From contig JAFGLO010000015.1 of NCBI GenBank assembly GCA_016927995.1, forward strand, positions 75,430 to 139,429: a stretch of 64,000 nucleotides of DNA, in the 5' to 3' direction. The notes beneath the pieces were generated by a model. The model ran no database searches and was not told the origin of the DNA. It saw only the letters and a program-made list of their open reading frames with translations. The stretch comes from Candidatus Dojkabacteria bacterium (GTDB taxonomy: Bacteria; Patescibacteriota; Dojkabacteria; JAFGLO01). A program made the translations under genes and the position numbers. Shown here one piece after another: positions 7,196 through 64,000 of the stretch. Each line of letters begins with the position of its first letter. The first letter of the stretch is position 1.

Positions 7196-7623
7196 AGGTC
7201 TTCGCAGAAAAGCTTATTGATGCCAAGTTAAAGATGGAAAACAACAAGCTGGTAATGCCTTTTAATAACTATGCAATTGTTGATCTTTCGGAACAAAGAG
7301 AATATGTGTTTTCCGATGAGACTATTTATGTCTATAGAGTTGCAACCGGGGCTGCCGAAAATCCAACTCCTGTGGGTGTCTGGAAGATTGTTAAGTATTA
7401 TGAAGATTTTGAACTGAGTTCACTTTACGGACCGTGCCTTTTAAAACTTAATTATTTTGATGGACGCACCTGGATTCCAACAGAAAGAGCTTTGCATGGG
7501 ACTAATACGCCTGATATAATAGGTTCACCTGAGTCTTTTGGGTGTATATATCATTACAATGATGATATCCTTAAGATTTGTGAGCTCTTTAAAATTGGTG
7601 ACTTTGTAATTGTGATCGAGTAG
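7168..7623 (+). CDS. L,D-transpeptidase (YkuD domain)
   Basis: Catalytic motif HGT...SHGC-like (ALHGTNTPDIIGSPESFGCIYHYNDD) and the IVDLSEQ..YVY signature. TTG start as annotated; no signal peptide in this frame. Confidence 0.7.
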   Translation: MFKVGTTKIKVFAEKLIDAKLKMENNKLVMPFNNYAIVDLSEQREYVFSDETIYVYRVATGAAENPTPVGVWKIVKYYEDFELSSLYGPCLLKLNYFDGRTWIPTERALHGTNTPDIIGSPESFGCIYHYNDDILKICELFKIGDFVIVIE

Positions 7624-7732
7624 AGATTGTTGACCGCAGGTTGCTTATAACCCGTTATCAATGCTATGGGTTTGGCGTTTCGGGTTTGATACCTTTTACG
7701 TAATACCTTTAAATATACCGTTTCTCACTTGT

Positions 7733-7804
7733 GCCGCTATCGTCTAACGGTTAGGACGCGGGATTCTCAATCCTGTAATCGGGGTTCGATTCCCCGTAGC
7801 GGTA
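7733..7804 (+). tRNA. tRNA-Glu (anticodon CTC)
   Basis: Manual cloverleaf: acceptor GCCGCTA/TAGCGGT with G1-U72, D-arm GTCT/GGAC, anticodon stem CGGGA/TCCTG with loop TTCTCAA, T-arm CGGGG-TTCGATT-CCCCG. No CCA encoded. Confidence 0.8.
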
Positions 7805-7925
7805 TTTATTCAGTGGGGAATCGAACCTGTATCACTTGTTTAGTTTCTTGATCCATGCTCCAAGTATTCGCATTCAGCCTTAGCCTGAGTTAGGTACATC
7901 TCAGGCTCCCCGTAGCGAGTGGGTA
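7805..7925. other. tRNA-like fragment region: inverted T-loop motif GGAATCGAACC and a second copy of the tRNA-Glu 3' end (CCCCGTAGCG..GTATTT)
   Basis: Seen directly in the sequence. Neither strand folds into a canonical cloverleaf by hand. Confidence 0.25.
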
Positions 7926-41100: not shown

Positions 41101-41442
41101 AACATCCTTGGTTTATCGGATGACTGCTTCGATAGGTTTTTCTTATTGAAGAGGAAAGTCCAGACACCATGTGGTCCCGACTTTTCGGGATAGACACTCT
41201 GGAGACAGAGGTAGGTGAAAGCTTACGGAGAAAAGGGCAACAGAAAGTTATACCGCCCCGACTTGTCGGGGTAAGGGTGAAATGGTGGAGTAAGAGCCCA
41301 CCGGTTCCAACAGTAATGTTGGGATGCGTGGTAACCCCTGTCTGGTGCAAGGGCAAAAACGCCCGCATAGATTGATAGTCATACATTCCCGACTTGTCGG
41401 GGAGGACAGAATTTGGCTTATAGGTAGGCCAAGGATGCTTAT
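41101..41442 (+). ncRNA. rnpB: RNase P RNA (bacterial type A)
   Basis: Conserved blocks GAGGAAAGTCC (P4 5' strand), AGGGTGAAATGGTGGAGTAAGAGCCCACC (CR-II) and ACAGAATTTGGCTTA (CR-V). P1 pairing CATCCTTGG (41103-11) with CCAAGGATG (41429-37). The region is visibly GC-rich. Confidence 0.85.
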
Positions 41443-58471: not shown

Positions 58472-59404
58472 CTACACGGGATCTACATAGTAAACGATTT
58501 TACCTTCAAAGGTTTTAACTTTATATCTGCCCGGAGAAACCTCTTTAAGCCAATCAACAGGTACCTTTCCATATCCGCCGGGTAGATCTAAAACGTATGT
58601 TGGAATTGCAATTCCCGAAAGGTTGCCTCGAAGTGATTTGTAGAGCTTAAGCCCGGTTTTTATTGAAACTCTAAAGTGATGAGTACCTTTGGCTTTGTCC
58701 AGATGGTGAAGGTAGTAGGGCTTTATGCCTATCTGAACTAGGTTGGTAAACAGCATAGGAAGTGTCTTAAGAGTATCGTTTACACCCTTAAGTAGTACTG
58801 TCTGGCTTAGCATAAGGATTCCAAAAGATTGAAGTTTTTTTGTAAGCGTAATTGTTTTTTTACTGATTTCTCTTGGATGGTTTACATGAACCACTATAAT
58901 TACCTGTTTTTTCCGCTGAATTTTAGCAAGTTTAGCTATGACGCCTGCTGTTATTAGCTTTGGTGCTGCCACAGGGACGCGTGTATGAATTCGTACAAGC
59001 TTTACTGTGTTTTGTGCATTTAAGGTGGATAGATATGAAAATAAAGCGGGTAGATCAGCTAAAGGGTCGCCACCTGATAAAATTACCTCGTTAACTTCTT
59101 GATGTTTTGACAAATAGGCTTTCACTTTTTTAGGGTCGGTATGCGTGCTTTCTAAATTATGTTTTCTAAAGCAGAATCTACAATGAATCGCGCATTTATC
59201 TGTTGTAAGTAGAAGAATGCGATTTGGGTATCTGTGAATAAGTCCGGGAATAGGGGACTTAAAATTATCTCCGATAGGGTCGGTCAACTCGTATGGTTTA
59301 ATATTGCGCTCGTGCTTGCTTGGTACAGCCATTAGTCTAAGTGGATCATTAGGATTGGTAGGATCAATAAGCGACGAATAGTGTTTAGGGATTAGTGGTT
59401 TCAT
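58472..59404 (-). CDS. KamA-family radical SAM protein (lysine 2,3-aminomutase / EpmB-like)
   Basis: CAIHCRFC CxxxCxxC cluster in a KamA-type context. At 310 aa its length fits EpmB better than KamA. Confidence 0.65.
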   Translation of the reverse strand: MKPLIPKHYSSLIDPTNPNDPLRLMAVPSKHERNIKPYELTDPIGDNFKSPIPGLIHRYPNRILLLTTDKCAIHCRFCFRKHNLESTHTDPKKVKAYLSKHQEVNEVILSGGDPLADLPALFSYLSTLNAQNTVKLVRIHTRVPVAAPKLITAGVIAKLAKIQRKKQVIIVVHVNHPREISKKTITLTKKLQSFGILMLSQTVLLKGVNDTLKTLPMLFTNLVQIGIKPYYLHHLDKAKGTHHFRVSIKTGLKLYKSLRGNLSGIAIPTYVLDLPGGYGKVPVDWLKEVSPGRYKVKTFEGKIVYYVDPV

Positions 59405-59518
59405 ACGCGGCGATTATATCACGCTCTTTGGGTTTGCAAATAAATAGGATATAATTACGCGTAATAGGAGAGGTGCCTGACCTTGCCATAGGCAGATCTG
59501 GCCCTAGTTTATGTTCTG

Positions 59519-59606
59519 GGAGAGGTGCCTGAGTGGTCGAAAGGACCGCTTTCGAAAAGCGGCGTCCCGCTTGTCGGGACCGTGGGTTCGAATCCCACCC
59601 TCTCCG
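59519..59606 (+). tRNA. tRNA-Ser (anticodon CGA), class II with long variable arm
   Basis: Acceptor GGAGAGG/CCTCTCC. Anticodon stem CCGCT/AGCGG with loop TTCGAAA. Variable arm CGTCCCGCTTGTCGGGACC. T-arm GTGGG-TTCGAAT-CCCAC. Confidence 0.8.
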
Positions 59607-59716
59607 GGTGGCACCCAAAGGGTGTCAGCCGGAGAGGGATGAAGTAGGAGAGCCCAGTGAAACGGGGGCGGAACGTACCATAAAGAAAATATCAGCACGT
59701 CTTGGCCGAAGGCCAA

Positions 59717-59732
59717 AATCCCACCCTCTCCG
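59717..59732 (+). repeat. Copy of the tRNA-Ser 3' end (AATCCCACCCTCTCCG)
   Basis: Exact 16-nt match to 59591-59606. Confidence 0.8.
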
Positions 59733-59851
59733 AGTGTGTGATTCTTCGCCACGGTATTCTGGTCAAATTCTTCCCGCAAGCCTAGGCTTTCGGGAAAGTT
59801 AGCCCCTTTATAGGTGTGCGGGCTGGGTTCCCTGTCTGCCGACAGGTAGAG

Positions 59852-59867
59852 AATCCCACCCTCTCCG
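59852..59867 (+). repeat. Second copy of the tRNA-Ser 3' end (AATCCCACCCTCTCCG)
   Basis: Exact 16-nt match to 59591-59606. Confidence 0.8.
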
Positions 59868-59983
59868 CAGATGTGCTTTAGTATACAATATTTGACTTAC
59901 CCATATTTGAAAAGGTAATATAGGCCAATATGAAAGAACCTACTATACAAACATAGGTTATACAAAGGGCCAAAAAAAGATTA

Positions 59984-60205
59984 TTGATTGTGGGATTGGT
60001 AATACTTGGCTTGTTTGTAATATATGCAATTATTCCTAAAAGATGCGACGATTATGTGATTTTTACTGGGCATATTACTGGAGGTAGTGATGATTCTGGG
60101 TACATTTTAGTATGTGAATGTATTGGATATAAAATTCAAAGAAAATATGCTCCTACCGATAATTCTGGCACGTGCATTGGGATAATGTATCATAGGAAAG
60201 AATAA
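59984..60205 (+). CDS. Small hypothetical protein with N-terminal transmembrane helix, Cys-containing
   Basis: ORF only. Confidence 0.25.
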   Translation: MIVGLVILGLFVIYAIIPKRCDDYVIFTGHITGGSDDSGYILVCECIGYKIQRKYAPTDNSGTCIGIMYHRKE

Positions 60206-60369
60206 ATGAACGAGGGGCAGGGGAACAAGCTGTGTTGGAAAAGTATTATCCTGATGCCCAAATTACTGCGATTGGCTTGTCTCATGCAGGGTCAGAGTTT
60301 TTAGTGATGTTTGATATTGCCAAATGGATTAAAGAAAATTTTGGGATCGAGGCTACGCCTTTTCCAGAG

Positions 60370-60388
60370 AAAAACTGGTGGAGGTAAT
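60370..60388 (+). repeat. 19-bp direct repeat AAAAACTGGTGGAGGTAAT (copy 1)
   Basis: Exact match to 61909-61927. Confidence 0.75.
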
Positions 60389-60449
60389 ACCATCATCTCA
60401 AAGGTTATTGCTTAATCGGTAATACATTCTAATATAACAAAGCTGATTA

Positions 60450-60611
60450 CTATATTAGAGGGCTTTTGATATTTTCGGTGTCCAGCTGACTTAAGTTCTT
60501 TTTTCTAAAAGTGAAATACTTCTTGAGACCATTCACATAACTTTTTATTGTTCTGGGGCTGTAATCACGAATTTCGAGCTCTCGTATTGTTATATTCAGT
60601 TCTTTTTGCAT
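60450..60611 (-). pseudogene. Tyrosine recombinase (phage-integrase) N-terminal fragment, truncated after 53 codons
   Basis: Hand translation gives MQKELNITIRELEIRDYSPRTIKSYVNGLKKYFTFRKKN.. then a stop. The ..YSPRTIKSY.. pattern is the integrase N-terminal SAM-like domain signature. No downstream frame continues the protein. Confidence 0.5.
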
Positions 60612-60669
60612 AAAAATATGGTTATGATAAAATTAGGACAGTTAATTTAGTGTTATTATAGCAGGGTGG

Positions 60670-60706
60670 ATTCGTATAGTATACGAATTTTCGTATAAAT
60701 TACGAA
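60670..60706. promoter_or_regulatory. Tandem palindromic operator-like site ATTCGTATAgTATACGAAT followed by TTCGTAtaaatTACGAA, 50-90 bp upstream of the DUF1801 gene
   Basis: Two perfect inverted repeats share TTCGTA/TACGAA half-sites. The region is divergent between the integrase remnant and the DUF1801 gene. Confidence 0.45.
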
Positions 60707-60756
60707 AACACTTCGGATAGTAACGAGTTGTACGCAATTCAAAAAAAGAGGTTTAT

Positions 60757-61101
60757 ATGGATGAAAAAATAAAACAATACATTGAAAAACAGAAGCCTAA
60801 AGAAAGACAGCTTATTGAAGAAGCGAGAAAATTAATATATGAAACGATTCCGGAATGTGATGAGTTTTTTCAATGGGGTGTTTTATGTTACTCTAAAGGC
60901 AAAATTTATATTGCTGCAATGAAGGACAGAATCCATGTAGGTTTTTCAATTATTGGTTTATCAAAAGAAGAGGTGAAAATTTTTGAAGGTAGTGGAAAAA
61001 CAGCCAGGCATATAAAAATATTTTCTGTTAATCAATTAGAAGAAAAAAATATTGCAGAATATGTTGAGATGGTTAATAAAAAAGCTGGTATACCTAGTTA
61101 A
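60757..61101 (+). CDS. DUF1801 (YdhG-like) domain protein
   Basis: Size and the conserved DUF1801 core pattern (..IPECDEFFQWGVLCYS.G..IYIAAMKDRIHVGF..). Confidence 0.5.
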   Translation: MDEKIKQYIEKQKPKERQLIEEARKLIYETIPECDEFFQWGVLCYSKGKIYIAAMKDRIHVGFSIIGLSKEEVKIFEGSGKTARHIKIFSVNQLEEKNIAEYVEMVNKKAGIPS

Positions 61102-61132
61102 CTTTTATTACCATTTTTTTTTGAACTGCGTA

Positions 61133-61215
61133 CAACAGCGTGTAGCCGGTTCGGGCGGAGTACCTCTCTCTCCCAAATTGCCTCCGCGAGTACGCTCCGG
61201 CAACTTCGGCTACAC
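61133..61215. repeat. GC-rich structured element: perfect 11-bp inverted repeat GCGTGTAGCCG / CGGCTACACGC enclosing nested GCGGAG/CTCCGC pairing
   Basis: Seen directly. Local GC content is far above the genome background. Confidence 0.5.
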
Positions 61216-61289
61216 GCGGAACGTTATGTGACATTTCGCGCACTGCCAAAAACGAAAAGGTTATAAATTTTGTTTTTTATATAGATACT

Positions 61290-61739
61290 ATGACGAAAAA
61301 AAGACATCAAAATATTCCTGCTTCTTATCTAACATTGTTCAAAGATAACAAAATCTTACTTCTTCGGCGTTGTAATACTGGATATGAAGACGGCAATTAC
61401 TCAATGGTTGCAGGACATGTTGATCCTTGCGAAACTTTTACTCAATGTATTATCAGAGAAGCAAAGGAAGAAGCAGGAATATTACTTAAACCTGAAGATT
61501 TGAAAGTTGTTCATGTAATGCACAGAAACTCTGGTACTGCTGAAAATAATGAAAGAGTTGATGTCTTTTTTATTGCTGAAAAATGGGGTGGTGAGATAGT
61601 AAACAAGGAACCTCACAAGTGCGATGATTTGTATTGGTTTGACTTGGATAGTATCCCAGAAAATGTCATCCCATATATCAAGCAAGCTATTGAAGGAATA
61701 AAAAATAAAATTTATTATAGTGAACATGGATGGCAGTGA
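61290..61739 (+). CDS. NUDIX hydrolase
   Basis: Nudix box GHVDPCETFTQCIIREAKEEAGI (G-x5-E-x7-REuxEExGu). Confidence 0.8.
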   Translation: MTKKRHQNIPASYLTLFKDNKILLLRRCNTGYEDGNYSMVAGHVDPCETFTQCIIREAKEEAGILLKPEDLKVVHVMHRNSGTAENNERVDVFFIAEKWGGEIVNKEPHKCDDLYWFDLDSIPENVIPYIKQAIEGIKNKIYYSEHGWQ

Positions 61740-61908
61740 GCGAAACGCTAAAGCCATGCTGCGCTCTCGTTCCGCTACGCTCCACTCGGGTCACATAACA
61801 CGGGATAAAAGGTTTGGCACTCGGCTCGTGTCTCACCAAAATTTTGCTCCACTCCGTTCCGCAAAACTTTGTATAGTCGCGGCACATTGTGGCGAAATTC
61901 CGTTCATT

Positions 61909-61927
61909 AAAAACTGGTGGAGGTAAT
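61909..61927 (+). repeat. 19-bp direct repeat AAAAACTGGTGGAGGTAAT (copy 2)
   Basis: Exact match to 60370-60388. Confidence 0.75.
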
Positions 61928-62122
61928 CAATGTGTTATAAGTCCATCTTAATGGCTGAGTTATCATACCCATCTTTAGTAGGCAAAACAATTAACGTTTC
62001 TGATCCTCGATATTAGGATATAACTACAGAGGTTCCTGTCTAATTGTGTTTGTATCTTATCGTTACTTTTTACTTTTACGTAATTTCTGCTATTATTTGT
62101 ATATAATTAGCTAACGTAATCC

Positions 62123-62554
62123 ATGATTAAGTCCAACCTAATAGCCCCATGCGGAATGAACTGTGCCTTATGTCTTGGGTATATCCGTGAAAAGAACCGT
62201 TGTGCAGGTTGTAGGGGAGACGAAAAGGGCATGCCAACGTATTGTGGAACCTGTAAAATGAAGGAGTGTGCAAAGGCAAAAGGATTTAAATACTGCTTTG
62301 AGTGTGATAAATATCCCTGTATGCTGGTAAAACATGTAGACAAGCGATACAGAACTCGTTATGGCATGAGCATGATAGAAAACCTAGACTTTATTAAAGC
62401 CCACGGAATTAGGGCATTTGTCAAAAAAGAAAAGGCCAGGTGGACGTGCAAATCCTGTGGAGCCATGCTTTGTGTTCATAGGCCAGTTTGTTTAAACTGT
62501 GGGGCGCAAAGGAATCCGCCGATGCCAGTTCCAACAAAGACAAGATCAAAGTAA
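62123..62554 (+). CDS. Cys-rich DUF3795-like protein
   Basis: N-terminal PCGMNCALCLGY... followed by multiple CxxC pairs (about 16 Cys in 143 aa), the pattern typical of DUF3795. Confidence 0.45.
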   Translation: MIKSNLIAPCGMNCALCLGYIREKNRCAGCRGDEKGMPTYCGTCKMKECAKAKGFKYCFECDKYPCMLVKHVDKRYRTRYGMSMIENLDFIKAHGIRAFVKKEKARWTCKSCGAMLCVHRPVCLNCGAQRNPPMPVPTKTRSK

Positions 62555-62590
62555 ACAATATCTTAACGGCTTTACTTGTTACCAACTTTA

Positions 62591-62624
62591 ATCGGTTCGC
62601 GTATAATCTATTAAGATAAGTTTT
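62591..62624 (+). repeat. 34-bp direct repeat ATCGGTTCGCGTATAATCTATTAAGATAAGTTTT (copy 1; contains TATAAT)
   Basis: Exact match to 63193-63226. Confidence 0.8.
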
Positions 62625-63096
62625 GTATTTTATCTTTATAAGAATTCTATTCAAGAGGAGAAAGGTTAAAAGATTTCTCATAATTTTCTTGTCAATGGTT
62701 ACACTTATTTCCATTTTGGTGGGAGTTATTTATTTCTTTTCATTTTGGTCGTGTGGTATGGATGATATGCAGAGGATATATTCTTGGCAGAAGTTTATTA
62801 TCCCAAGTGTATTAAGAAATGCACCTGAAAGCGAAACTATTAGTTGTTCTTGTGGTTATTATCCGAGTTGTGGAATTTTTGTTAAACATAATGAAACAAC
62901 AGAAAAAAATTTGGCTGATCTTATGCAGGATAATATCGTTTATTTTGAAAGTAATGGATACTATCTCACGATAGAGAGTTACTCTGGTGATGAACTTTAT
63001 TGTAAGGAAGGTTCATCAAAACTTGATTGTTTTCAGATGGTCAGTTATGAAAAGGATAATGCGACAATCCTAGCCGTTACATTTTATGACAGGTAG
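62623..63096 (+). CDS. Hypothetical membrane-anchored, Cys-containing protein
   Basis: N-terminal transmembrane helix. Begins right after the repeat. The C-terminal domain has a truncated paralog 600 bp downstream. Confidence 0.4.
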   Translation: MYFIFIRILFKRRKVKRFLIIFLSMVTLISILVGVIYFFSFWSCGMDDMQRIYSWQKFIIPSVLRNAPESETISCSCGYYPSCGIFVKHNETTEKNLADLMQDNIVYFESNGYYLTIESYSGDELYCKEGSSKLDCFQMVSYEKDNATILAVTFYDR

Positions 63097-63192
63097 TTAT
63101 TTGTCGTTTGGTTTCTTTCGCAACTTTGGGAACAGGTCCTGGAACATTGTAATTTGAGGTACTAAAGAAAAATTCGAGATTGAGCGACTCCG

Positions 63193-63226
63193 ATCGGTTC
63201 GCGTATAATCTATTAAGATAAGTTTT
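63193..63226 (+). repeat. 34-bp direct repeat (copy 2)
   Basis: Exact match to 62591-62624. Confidence 0.8.
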
Positions 63227-63231
63227 AATAA

Positions 63232-63381
63232 CAAAGTTTGGAAATTATAGTCTCTCCTGGAGAAATAGCCTATTGCTATCATGGAAGTGAATATTCGGAT
63301 AATGGTGATCGTAATGATTGTTTCAAGGTTGAGCATCTAGGATCTGATCGTTTAATTGTAACATTTTACAACAGGTGGTAG
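63232..63381 (+). pseudogene. Truncated paralog of the C-terminal domain of the 62623..63096 protein (no ATG start)
   Basis: Frame-1 translation ..SPGEIAYCYHGSEYSDNGDRNDCFKVEHLGSDRLIVTFYNRW* aligns with ..YSGDELYCKEGSSKLDCFQMVSYEKDNATILAVTFYDR*. Confidence 0.45.
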
Positions 63382-63605
63382 TGTTTGATATTAGAAAAAC
63401 AACAATTTGGCTGCTTTTGGTAAATGCAGCCTTCTGGCTTGTATATGCAATCTACTTTTCATTCCTTTGGTTTTGGGGAAGACCAGAGTATCTGATAATA
63501 AAGATACTACTTTTTATGGAACCAATTTTATATGTAGGTTCGCTCTGGGGGTTTGTAAAGAGAAACAGGTATATATATATGTTCAGTATTATTTGTGTTT
63601 GCTAA
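63375..63605 (+). CDS. Small 2-transmembrane-helix hypothetical membrane protein
   Basis: ORF and hydrophobicity only. Confidence 0.25.
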   Translation: MVVFDIRKTTIWLLLVNAAFWLVYAIYFSFLWFWGRPEYLIIKILLFMEPILYVGSLWGFVKRNRYIYMFSIICVC

Positions 63606-63812
63606 CACAATATTGTCAATAACAGATCAGTTTGGAATTTTAGACCTTCTATCCTTAGGGATAAGTTTTGTGTGTTTGGTTGGGCTATTGGCGAACTGGG
63701 CTCAAATATTCAAGAAAAAACCTTAGAGCACTTTAATCACATAGTACCAATAGACAGCATTCAAAAAATATATTACACTTGGGGTAGATAATAAATTAAA
63801 AAATCCCAGACA

Positions 63813-64000
63813 GATGAAGTTTTCAATCAAAACCACGGACATCGCAAAATACATGGCAAATATCGGGAGACTGGTTGATCCTAAACCGTCCATACCTGTT
63901 TTGGGGAATATCCTTATAAATGCATCAAAAGATGGAGTAATGTTTACTGCTTCAAATCTTGAACTTAGCATGCAGGTTACCCTAAAGGCCGATGTATCCG
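63813..64000 (+). CDS. dnaN: DNA polymerase III beta subunit (sliding clamp), N-terminal fragment (3' partial)
   Basis: MKFSIKTTDIAKYMANIGRLVDPKPSIPVLGNILINASKDGVMFTASNLELSM matches the DnaN N-terminal domain consensus (..P.LGN.L......L.L.A.DLE...). Confidence 0.75.

Follow-up and report, generated by a model that had tools for sequence, protein, structure and literature searches.

What is a 53-codon piece of a tyrosine recombinase gene doing beside a tRNA-Ser gene and several partial copies of that tRNA? The piece lies in a 64,000-nucleotide stretch of the genome of a Candidatus Dojkabacteria bacterium (Patescibacteria; contig JAFGLO010000015.1; the whole stretch is called the window below), and was initially annotated, from the letters alone, as the stump of an integrase in a tRNA-bounded island. 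In our reading, which we hold with considerable confidence, what remains in this open reading frame (ORF) is an inactivated integrase gene, which belonged to a small chromosomal integron now in decay. The intact gene would have encoded an XerA/IntI-like tyrosine recombinase of ~270 amino acids (aa), divergent from an attI-like site and a cassette array whose promoterless-looking cassettes would each end in a hairpin-forming attC; in the intact relatives, strand exchange at the G|TT of the core sites would let the enzyme take cassettes in and release them. The platform as it stands is dead in cis: its first attC and its attI-like site remain intact, and its second attC is a non-folding hybrid. 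The remnant alone is ordinary gene decay, and the interest lies in its family. Below we demonstrate the homology of the remnant, the architecture of its deletion, the attI-like and attC sites, and the boundaries of the cassettes and their occurrence elsewhere.

The recombinase remnant and its deletion

The minus-strand ORF begins with ATG and translates, exactly as first described, into 53 aa. Its proposed likeness to the N-terminal, SAM-like domain of integrases is upheld by the PF13495 profile, phmmer and tblastn alike, far above chance. PF13495 (Phage_int_SAM_4) matched the peptide with 27.8 bits (E = 3.3e-6), reaching the curated gathering cutoff of 27.0 yet covering just profile positions 3–47 of 85; PF02899 matched more weakly in the Pfam scan, and NCBIfam gave weak N-terminal matches to XerA and integron-integrase models. 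A word-indexed protein search with the peptide returned no matches and exhaustive phmmer was needed, which found 67 matches at E ≤ 1e-3 (best, 1e-11) among 1.84 billion representatives; a search of solved structures yielded insignificant matches to MecI alone. The peptide shares 58–64% identity with the N-termini of its relatives across 50–53 aa (E down to 1e-17), and tblastn of three full-length relatives against the whole window returned 60611–60453, residues 1–53, as the sole match (60–63% identity, E = 1e-14 to 1e-17), with no further integrase piece. A profile built from the phmmer relatives gathered more than 7,600 proteins, the best of which are almost all 270–272 aa long with PF13495 and PF00589 and, where named, belong to Patescibacteria.

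The catalytic domain is gone and continues in no other frame, as had been supposed: PF00589 was absent from the three minus-strand frames of 59380–60640 in the Pfam scan, and the remnant lacks the R..K..HxxR..H/W..Y residues that this domain carries in a functional tyrosine recombinase. Decay by frameshift or nonsense mutation with a surviving downstream remnant was rejected on the frame scan and tblastn. Two NIK motifs characterize the recombinase family, one at about residue 47 (LD.ENIK.FLL) and one at the extreme C terminus (..TNP.LKNIKSPL-stop). In 117 of 120 full-length relatives the latter reads NI[KR]|SP[LF], followed by 0–6 residues and the stop, and SP directly follows the N-terminal NIK in none of the 120. 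The window ORF ends in ..LDTENIK|SPLI-stop and thereby combines the N-terminal signature of the family, MQK.L..T.RELKIRNYSPKTIKSY...LD.ENIK, with its C-terminal signature, ..NIKSPL-stop. Judged by this joint, the loss is an internal in-frame deletion of ~217 codons, not a 3' truncation. A full-length gene of about 1 kb reaching back into the tRNA-Ser repeats, as initially envisaged, is contradicted by the intact relatives, which are ~270 aa long (813 bp), and by the native stop at 60450; the gene never extended beyond this position, because the native C-terminal tail and stop are retained.

The N- and C-terminal NIK motifs are encoded by two short direct repeats (AAAATATCAAA-like), between which the deletion would have arisen by slippage or by a microhomology-mediated event; the repeats are a plausible substrate for either. 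Intact genes have, between the two regions, direct repeats of 7–10 exact nt (~10 of 11 positions) of the form AAAATAT(C/T)AAA. The deletion would have left a product with the native start and stop, half a DNA-binding domain and zero catalytic residues, which is probably without function. The same joint, ..NENIK|SPF-stop, ends a 52-codon ORF in L095, an unrelated contig from groundwater on which 3 nt separate the stop from dnaJ. The two mini-ORFs are 59% identical to each other and each is 58–64% identical to intact genes; independent deletions are the simpler reading because the two are no closer mutually than to intact genes. Other family members in the database (P0020, P0022 and P0039) are broken in other ways. 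In deletion between the NIK repeats these genes have a simple and repeatable route to inactivation.

Collapse of an intact gene during assembly was considered and judged unlikely, given that the direct repeat of ~10 nt is shorter than assembler k-mers and that a second assembler agrees: the independent Logan assembly of run SRR13394437, which may share reads with the source genome, is 100% identical across 59838–61161. Its contigs (L001 and L002) break at 59604 (the tRNA 3' end), 59838 (before the third repeat) and 61161 (in the loop of the first attC), which suggests repeated or variable sequences in the population. Exact look-ups with the neighbouring DUF1801 and KamA proteins recovered Logan contigs of the same organism alone, broken at the tRNA repeat and inside the first attC, and exact-match contig look-ups with the NUDIX and DUF3795 proteins returned nothing. 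In the source metagenome-assembled genome (MAG), the proteins neighbouring the remnant are MBN1374491-94.

The attI-like site, the cassettes and their counterparts elsewhere

Between the start codon of the remnant and the next gene lies a conserved, non-coding stretch (Table 1) that contains TTCGTATAGTATACGAA and TTCGTATAAATTACGAAAAC, then TTCGGATAGTAACGA and GTTGTAC. It aligns, in tblastx as well, with the stretch upstream of intact integrase genes at six loci (L003, L008, L011, L015, L017 and L056); repeated TTCGYATA boxes ending in G|TTRTRC precede the integrase gene in the window and in six relatives, and we call the site attI-like. Folded as DNA, it scores z = -3.6. The attI-like core is the exact starting point of the first cassette, and homology to the DUF1801 cassette of another array (L105) begins there too, at 60727.

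Cassette 1 carries a 21-nt inverted repeat, GTTGTACGCAATTCAAAAAAA at 60727–60747 and TTTTTTTGAACTGCGTACAAC at 61116–61136, within which the inverse core GCGTACAAC is complementary to the first bases of the cassette. The spacers of its attC are AG between R'' and L'' and GGAAC between L' and R', and the bottom strand folds at -27 kcal/mol (z = -3.1). Cassette 2 starts with TTATGTGAC, complementary to its own inverse core, GTCACATAA(C) / GTCACATAAC, at 61790–61799. Such complementarity of a cassette's start to its own inverse core, seen here at 60727/61130 and 61223/61790, is a classical mark of integron cassettes. The 3' half of the second attC fits the family pattern with the first core base mutated and is followed by CGAAAT; the two halves are not mutually complementary, and their fold does not surpass that of shuffled sequences (z = -0.3 and -0.6). 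Other NUDIX cassettes are homologous only as far as 61821, and the complete attC at their loci reads GCCTAAC AG CGGATATGAGG ... TCTCATATCCG CGAAC G|TT. A complete second site from 61790 to ~61900 was rejected for its failure to fold, leaving a hybrid of two sites. Half-site hidden Markov models (HMMs) and a covariance model recognized no attC or half-site in the window beyond 61892. The array is decaying, as expected after loss of the integrase. Promoter and terminator scans stayed at chance level.

Upstream of intact relatives, many loci have sites whose geometry is identical to that in the window: RYYYAAC, 2 nt, one strand of an 11-bp stem, a variable loop with a CCCA(A/T)AT motif, the other strand of the stem, 5 nt, GTTRRRY and G.AAT. 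The stems consist of 11 uninterrupted pairs with an asymmetric spacer (2 nt versus 5 nt), and no bulged bases were seen in the L box. We built the covariance model from 17 attC sites of other loci, without any window sequence; the stem of this seed alignment is 96% paired and 10 of its 11 pairs change on both sides, values to be read with the caveat that the seed sites were chosen for having a stem. Across the 64 kb the model found one significant site, at 61133–61226 (+) with 25.3 bits and E = 2.3e-4, the next best having E = 0.8. The top window matches of the 5' half-site HMM, 61788–61818 (E = 3.2e-4) and then 61125–61154 (E = 3.4e-3), and the best match of the 3' half-site HMM, 61200–61235 (E = 1.5e-4), all fall at the predicted positions and on the predicted plus strand. 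An additional 'site' from a stem scan, at 60769–60886 inside the DUF1801 coding region, received no support from the covariance model and was dismissed as chance. The intact attC and the 5' half-site at 61788–61818 follow the integron pattern of imperfect palindromes with an RYYYAAC ... GTTRRRY frame that adjoin the integrase gene and point away from it.

In 1.02 Mb around 83 relatives the covariance model detected 34 sites at E ≤ 0.01, 19 of them outside the seed. Two configurations account for all 34, namely upstream of the recombinase gene and on the opposite strand, or downstream and on the same strand; neither of the other two configurations occurs. The upstream arrangement is that of all Patescibacteria-type loci and L091, the downstream one that of Spirochaetota, Paenibacillaceae and Flavobacteriia. 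At a Peregrinibacteria locus (L032), seven attC-like sites stand in a row, each between small same-strand ORFs. Contigs often break 80–600 bp upstream of the recombinase gene, as expected because this is next to repeated or variable arrays. More distant relatives (35–45% identity), from Flavobacterium enshiense, Saccharibacillus, Paenibacillus, Spirochaetota and Flagellimonas, have the downstream, same-strand layout of an 'inverted integrase'. Further relatives occur in DPANN archaea (L047, L054, L063, L065, L068, L075, L077 and L090), and several among the closest relatives occur on short contigs of MAGs labelled Pseudomonadales or Gammaproteobacteria (L015, L027, L036, L037 and L040), in a family otherwise from Patescibacteria; the labels may reflect mis-binning or transfer.

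Both cassettes recur in other arrays. The DUF1801 cassette is 89% identical to one at L105, a locus with ten attC matches between small ORFs, and the homology covers exactly 60727–61137. A cluster of 73 members at 90% identity contains the NUDIX protein, whose cassette is 86–89% identical to cassettes in L111-L117. There it follows four different attC 3' halves or one attI-like site and precedes two different cassettes; each time, the change of neighbour falls exactly at G|TT. The L111 copy stands first in its array; 144 bp separate it from the start of a divergent, intact recombinase gene of the same kind, which also lacks the additional domain of IntI. By these boundaries the cassettes are discrete mobile units exchanged at G|TT, and this recombinase family may be what moves them.

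Some further observations concern the same cassettes. The homology between the DUF1801 cassettes ends just after R'' (window 61137/61138 versus L105:4139/4140), beyond which the attC stems and loops are unrelated (CGTGTAGCCGG versus GAAATATGCGG), and pieces of the window attC 3' halves recur in L105 at 1018–1064 and 7314–7347; this hints that attC halves may be reshuffled, perhaps by exchange at R'' as well as R'. Terminal inverted repeats extend past the 7-nt cores—in the NUDIX cassette over 15 nt (61234–61248/61731–61745), perfect in L111-L117—and in a circular NUDIX or DUF1801 (21 nt) cassette they would lengthen the attC stem. Outside arrays, the NUDIX gene is found with 82–85% DNA identity between relA/spoT and a polysaccharide synthase gene (L107-L110), and in Magasanikbacteria (L099-L104) within a compact operon whose other genes encode zeta-toxin, radical-SAM, MazG and acetyltransferase proteins; these copies may be source genes or secondary-site insertions. 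A DUF3795 gene (62123–62554) lies to the right of the recognizable array with no detectable attC, and at L011:2345-2644 a DUF3795 gene is a bona fide cassette that adjoins an MNT/HepT toxin-antitoxin cassette.

Table 1. Coordinates of the features in the window and, where a locus is named, in related loci
Feature	Position	Strand	Description
Remnant integrase gene, 53 codons	60450..60611	-	N-terminal SAM-like domain, residues 1-49, joined in frame to SPLI-stop, the native C-terminal tail
Deletion joint, codons E-N-I-K (GAAAATATCAAA)	60465..60476	-	N- and C-terminal NIK repeats merged; ~217 codons (~650 bp) gone
attI-like site	60671..60733	+	TTCGTATA boxes (60671-60687, palindrome; 60690-60706), TTACGAAAAC, TTCGGATAGTAACGA, core G|TTGTAC 60727-60733
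Cassette 1, DUF1801 gene with own attC	60728..61223	+	ORF 60757-61101; PF08818, E = 2e-9
Intact attC of cassette 1	61130..61229	+	R'' GTACAAC 61130-36, L'' CGTGTAGCCGG 61139-49, L' CGGCTACACGC 61207-17, R' GTTATGT 61223-29
Cassette 2, NUDIX gene	61224..61886	+	ORF 61290-61739; PF00293, E = 3e-17
Hybrid, non-folding second attC	61793..61892	+	5' half of the NUDIX cassette: R'' ACATAAC 61793-99, L'' GGGATAAAAGG 61802-12; 3' half of another attC: L' TTGTATAGTCG 61869-79, mutated R' ATTGTGG 61886-92
tRNA-Ser(CGA)	59519..59606	+	Convergent with the integrase remnant
Partial tRNA-Ser copies	59467-59480; 59716-59732; 59851-59867		14-nt 5' end; 3' end; 3' end
tRNAs near intact integrase stops, convergent	L025:10818-10907; L017:1421-1511		Ser CGA, 8 nt from the stop; Ser CGA, 35 nt
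tRNAs near intact integrase stops	L028:974-1057; L051:10937-11024; L031:3168-3244		Leu, 84 nt; Ser GCT, 130 nt; Met, 58 nt
Inverted-integrase loci	L049:11505-19322; L050; L044; L058; L081; L092		attC-like sites downstream, same strand

The tRNA-Ser neighbourhood and rival explanations

The 3'-terminal 16–17 nt of tRNA-Ser have two further copies in the window, at 59716 and 59851, and no others at ≤3 mismatches, so that all three copies of this end (59590, 59716 and 59851) lie on the 3' side of the integrase remnant, the nearest of them ending 582 bp from the native stop. Between 59629 and 59732 (~104 nt), a degenerate tRNA-like fold retains both acceptor halves (RNA fold z = -3.5); Rfam detected no family in the region apart from tRNA. 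Repeated insertion at the 3' end of the tRNA seems to have left the partial copies as scars, separate from the integron. Apart from the tRNA, neither 59400–60450 nor 61890–63810 has a counterpart among the fetched loci.

In five relatives a tRNA lies 8–130 nt from the integrase stop, four of these being class II tRNAs (Ser, Leu) on the opposite strand, and a tRNA in this place is far commoner than tRNA density predicts. The proximity of tRNA-Ser and integrase in the window is probably not accidental, because a tRNA adjoins the 3' end of four intact relatives, in two of them a convergent tRNA-Ser(CGA). The likeliest history would be that the platform was once the immediate neighbour of tRNA-Ser and that insertions, arriving later at the 3' end of the tRNA, separated the two by 843 bp. 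A synteny scan of metagenome contigs with the neighbouring KamA-like protein found only relatives of 37–39% identity, without tRNA or integrase.

In the explanation of the initial annotation, the ORF is the 5' stump of a phage-type integrase of a tRNA-Ser island, whose 3' two-thirds decayed or were deleted toward att-like repeats. Three copies of the tRNA-Ser 3' end and a 5' fragment on the gene's 3' side speak for it, as do the relatives that end 8 and 35 nt from a convergent tRNA-Ser(CGA) (L025 and L017) or stand beside tRNA-Leu or tRNA-Ser(GCT) (L028 and L051). We nevertheless rate this explanation as very improbable: the native C-terminal tail and stop largely refute it, the family is XerA/IntI-like and not P4/lambda-like, and the 5' side of the gene is occupied by the attI-like site and the attC cassettes. 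Nor do tRNA 3'-end repeats bracket integrase and cargo, since no copy lies beyond the gene or array in the window or in the four tRNA-adjacent relatives, none of which has a duplicated tRNA 3' end. The tRNA-att-int layout of the initial annotation consequently falls with the one-sidedness of these copies; of its degraded integrative island at 59.4–63.8 kb, the degraded region of mobile DNA stands and the tRNA island, whose repeats do not bracket the gene, does not.

Another explanation starts from the unbroken frame of the ORF and its native start and stop: the 53-aa product would be a functional mini-protein that was kept, such as a half SAM-domain binder on the attI boxes, and the NIK-to-NIK deletion would have been selected. 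The same architecture in a second, unrelated genome (L095, 59% identity) and the full conservation of the adjoining attI-like site agree with it. It is very improbable in our view, given how little of the profile remains, the many differently broken versions in the database and an exact-match contig look-up that found no identical copy of the peptide elsewhere; the identities of the two mini-ORFs to each other and to intact genes fit independent deletions at a universal repeat. Hardly credible, finally, is a host XerA-type recombinase of chromosome-dimer resolution that stands near the cassettes incidentally while another enzyme moves them. Three of four full-length relatives score 225–238 against the XerA model NF040815 (cutoff 220; the fourth scores 207), the L032 enzyme aligns end to end without gaps with Pyrococcus XerA (4A8E, residues 2–264), and the additional domain of IntI is missing, all of which would suit such a role. 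A sole Xer is not expected to be dispensable or so often broken, however, and the fixed orientation of all 34 attC matches relative to the gene, the conserved attI-like site directly upstream of it in many lineages, the repeated contig breaks at 80–600 bp upstream and the mobile cassette that abuts the gene at the attI core in L111 speak against an incidental neighbour.

The decaying integron remains our preferred reading, and several points weigh against it. The family lacks the IntI additional domain near patch III—absent from the full-length relatives, its region being deleted in the window ORF—and falls below the cutoff of the integron-integrase model TIGR02249 (209–225 versus 265 in four full-length relatives, each in two stretches). 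Enzymes without this domain near attC sites have been treated as not IntI (PMC4889954), and three of the four full-length relatives pass the XerA model, which makes a role in chromosome-dimer resolution possible. The family's link to attC recombination is one that we infer from sequence. In the window a single attC reaches significance, the second is a hybrid and the 'array' amounts to two cassettes; the E-values of the covariance model are rough, owing to a short calibration; and the recurrent tRNA at the 3' end of the integrase is not accounted for by the integron model.

Other repeats in the variable region were noted alongside. An exact 19-nt direct repeat, AAAAACTGGTGGAGGTAAT, with a strong ribosome-binding motif occurs at 60370–60388, 62 nt past the integrase stop, and at 61909–61927, just after the hybrid attC; the copies are 1,539 bp apart, bracket the remnant, the attI-like site and both cassettes, and have unalike flanks. 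An exact 34-nt direct repeat (ATCGGTTCGCGTATAATCTATTAAGATAAGTTTT; 62591–62624 and 63193–63226) precedes two small ORFs with similar C-termini (..ILAVTFYDR and ..LIVTFYNRW), which looks like a partial segmental duplication; it begins with CGGTTCG, like the motif after the L'' stem in many attC sites. Directly past the variable region, dnaN starts at 63815 (63815–64000). Elsewhere in the window are a bacterial RNase P RNA (41108–41436) and tRNA-Glu (7732–7805).

A possible integron class and its place among known systems

A broader proposal, which we advance tentatively and consider slightly more doubtful than probable, is that Patescibacteria harbour a large and overlooked class of integrons in which ~270-aa XerA-like recombinases without the additional domain serve as the working integrases; relatives are found in DPANN archaea, Spirochaetota, Bacteroidota and Paenibacillaceae. 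These enzymes would read attC through a plain 11-bp stem and an asymmetric spacer, not through extrahelical bases; current tools would score their arrays as attC clusters in which the integron integrase is missing (CALINs); and the window would hold a decayed member that underwent the recurrent NIK deletion. The literature that we searched yielded no description of integrons in candidate phyla radiation (CPR) bacteria. For archaeal IntIs, Ghaly et al. (2022) emphasized the additional domain; they found just six IntIs alongside 539 attCs (PMC9668308).

The trail from the remnant leads to evidence of true cassette arrays in CPR bacteria, with attC sites, attI-like sites and shared cassettes, and these arrays adjoin a recombinase that has no additional domain, the feature regarded as both necessary for integron integrases and diagnostic of them. 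If this enzyme does move the cassettes, an entire branch of integrons escapes the definition on which integron-finding software relies, attC clusters called 'integrase-less' may in many cases have an integrase beside them, and the choice of strand by an enzyme without the additional domain becomes experimentally testable.

Among known systems, the locus may be compared with the P4/lambda-type integrases of genomic islands and prophages that target tRNA genes. With these it shares a recombinase gene near a tRNA with a repeated 3' end and the recurrence of a convergent tRNA-Ser or tRNA-Leu; the recombinase belongs to another subfamily, however, the repeats do not bracket its gene, and its own recombination sites lie on the 5' side. 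Archaeal XerA (NF040815; PDB 4A8E and 5HXY) resembles the relatives in length, domain order and gapless alignment, but is a single-copy housekeeping enzyme acting at a dif site, whereas the family here adjoins attI-like and attC sites and is often broken. To intI pseudogenes beside degraded arrays or CALINs the window is alike in that loss of the integrase leaves a decaying cluster of attC sites, as has been proposed for CALINs (PMC4889954).

A further comparison is with IntI integrons. The relatives differ from IntI (TIGR02249) in their length and in the want of the ~35-aa additional domain; the best solved structure for a full-length relative is nonetheless the Vibrio enzyme VchIntIA (PDB 2A3V; E = 8.5e-45), aligned in two blocks between which the relative has 28 residues and VchIntIA 71. 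The uninterrupted attC stems, the 2-nt versus 5-nt spacer and the CPR host also set the relatives' loci apart. We do not file the enzyme as IntI because it failed the additional-domain test despite the integron layout, in which it appears to work like an integron integrase. In common with IntI and its integrons are the PF13495 N-terminal domain, a gene divergent from an attI-like site and an attC-bounded array, cores of the form RYYYAAC / G|TTRRRY, a cassette start complementary to its own inverse core, and the same cassettes in different arrays.

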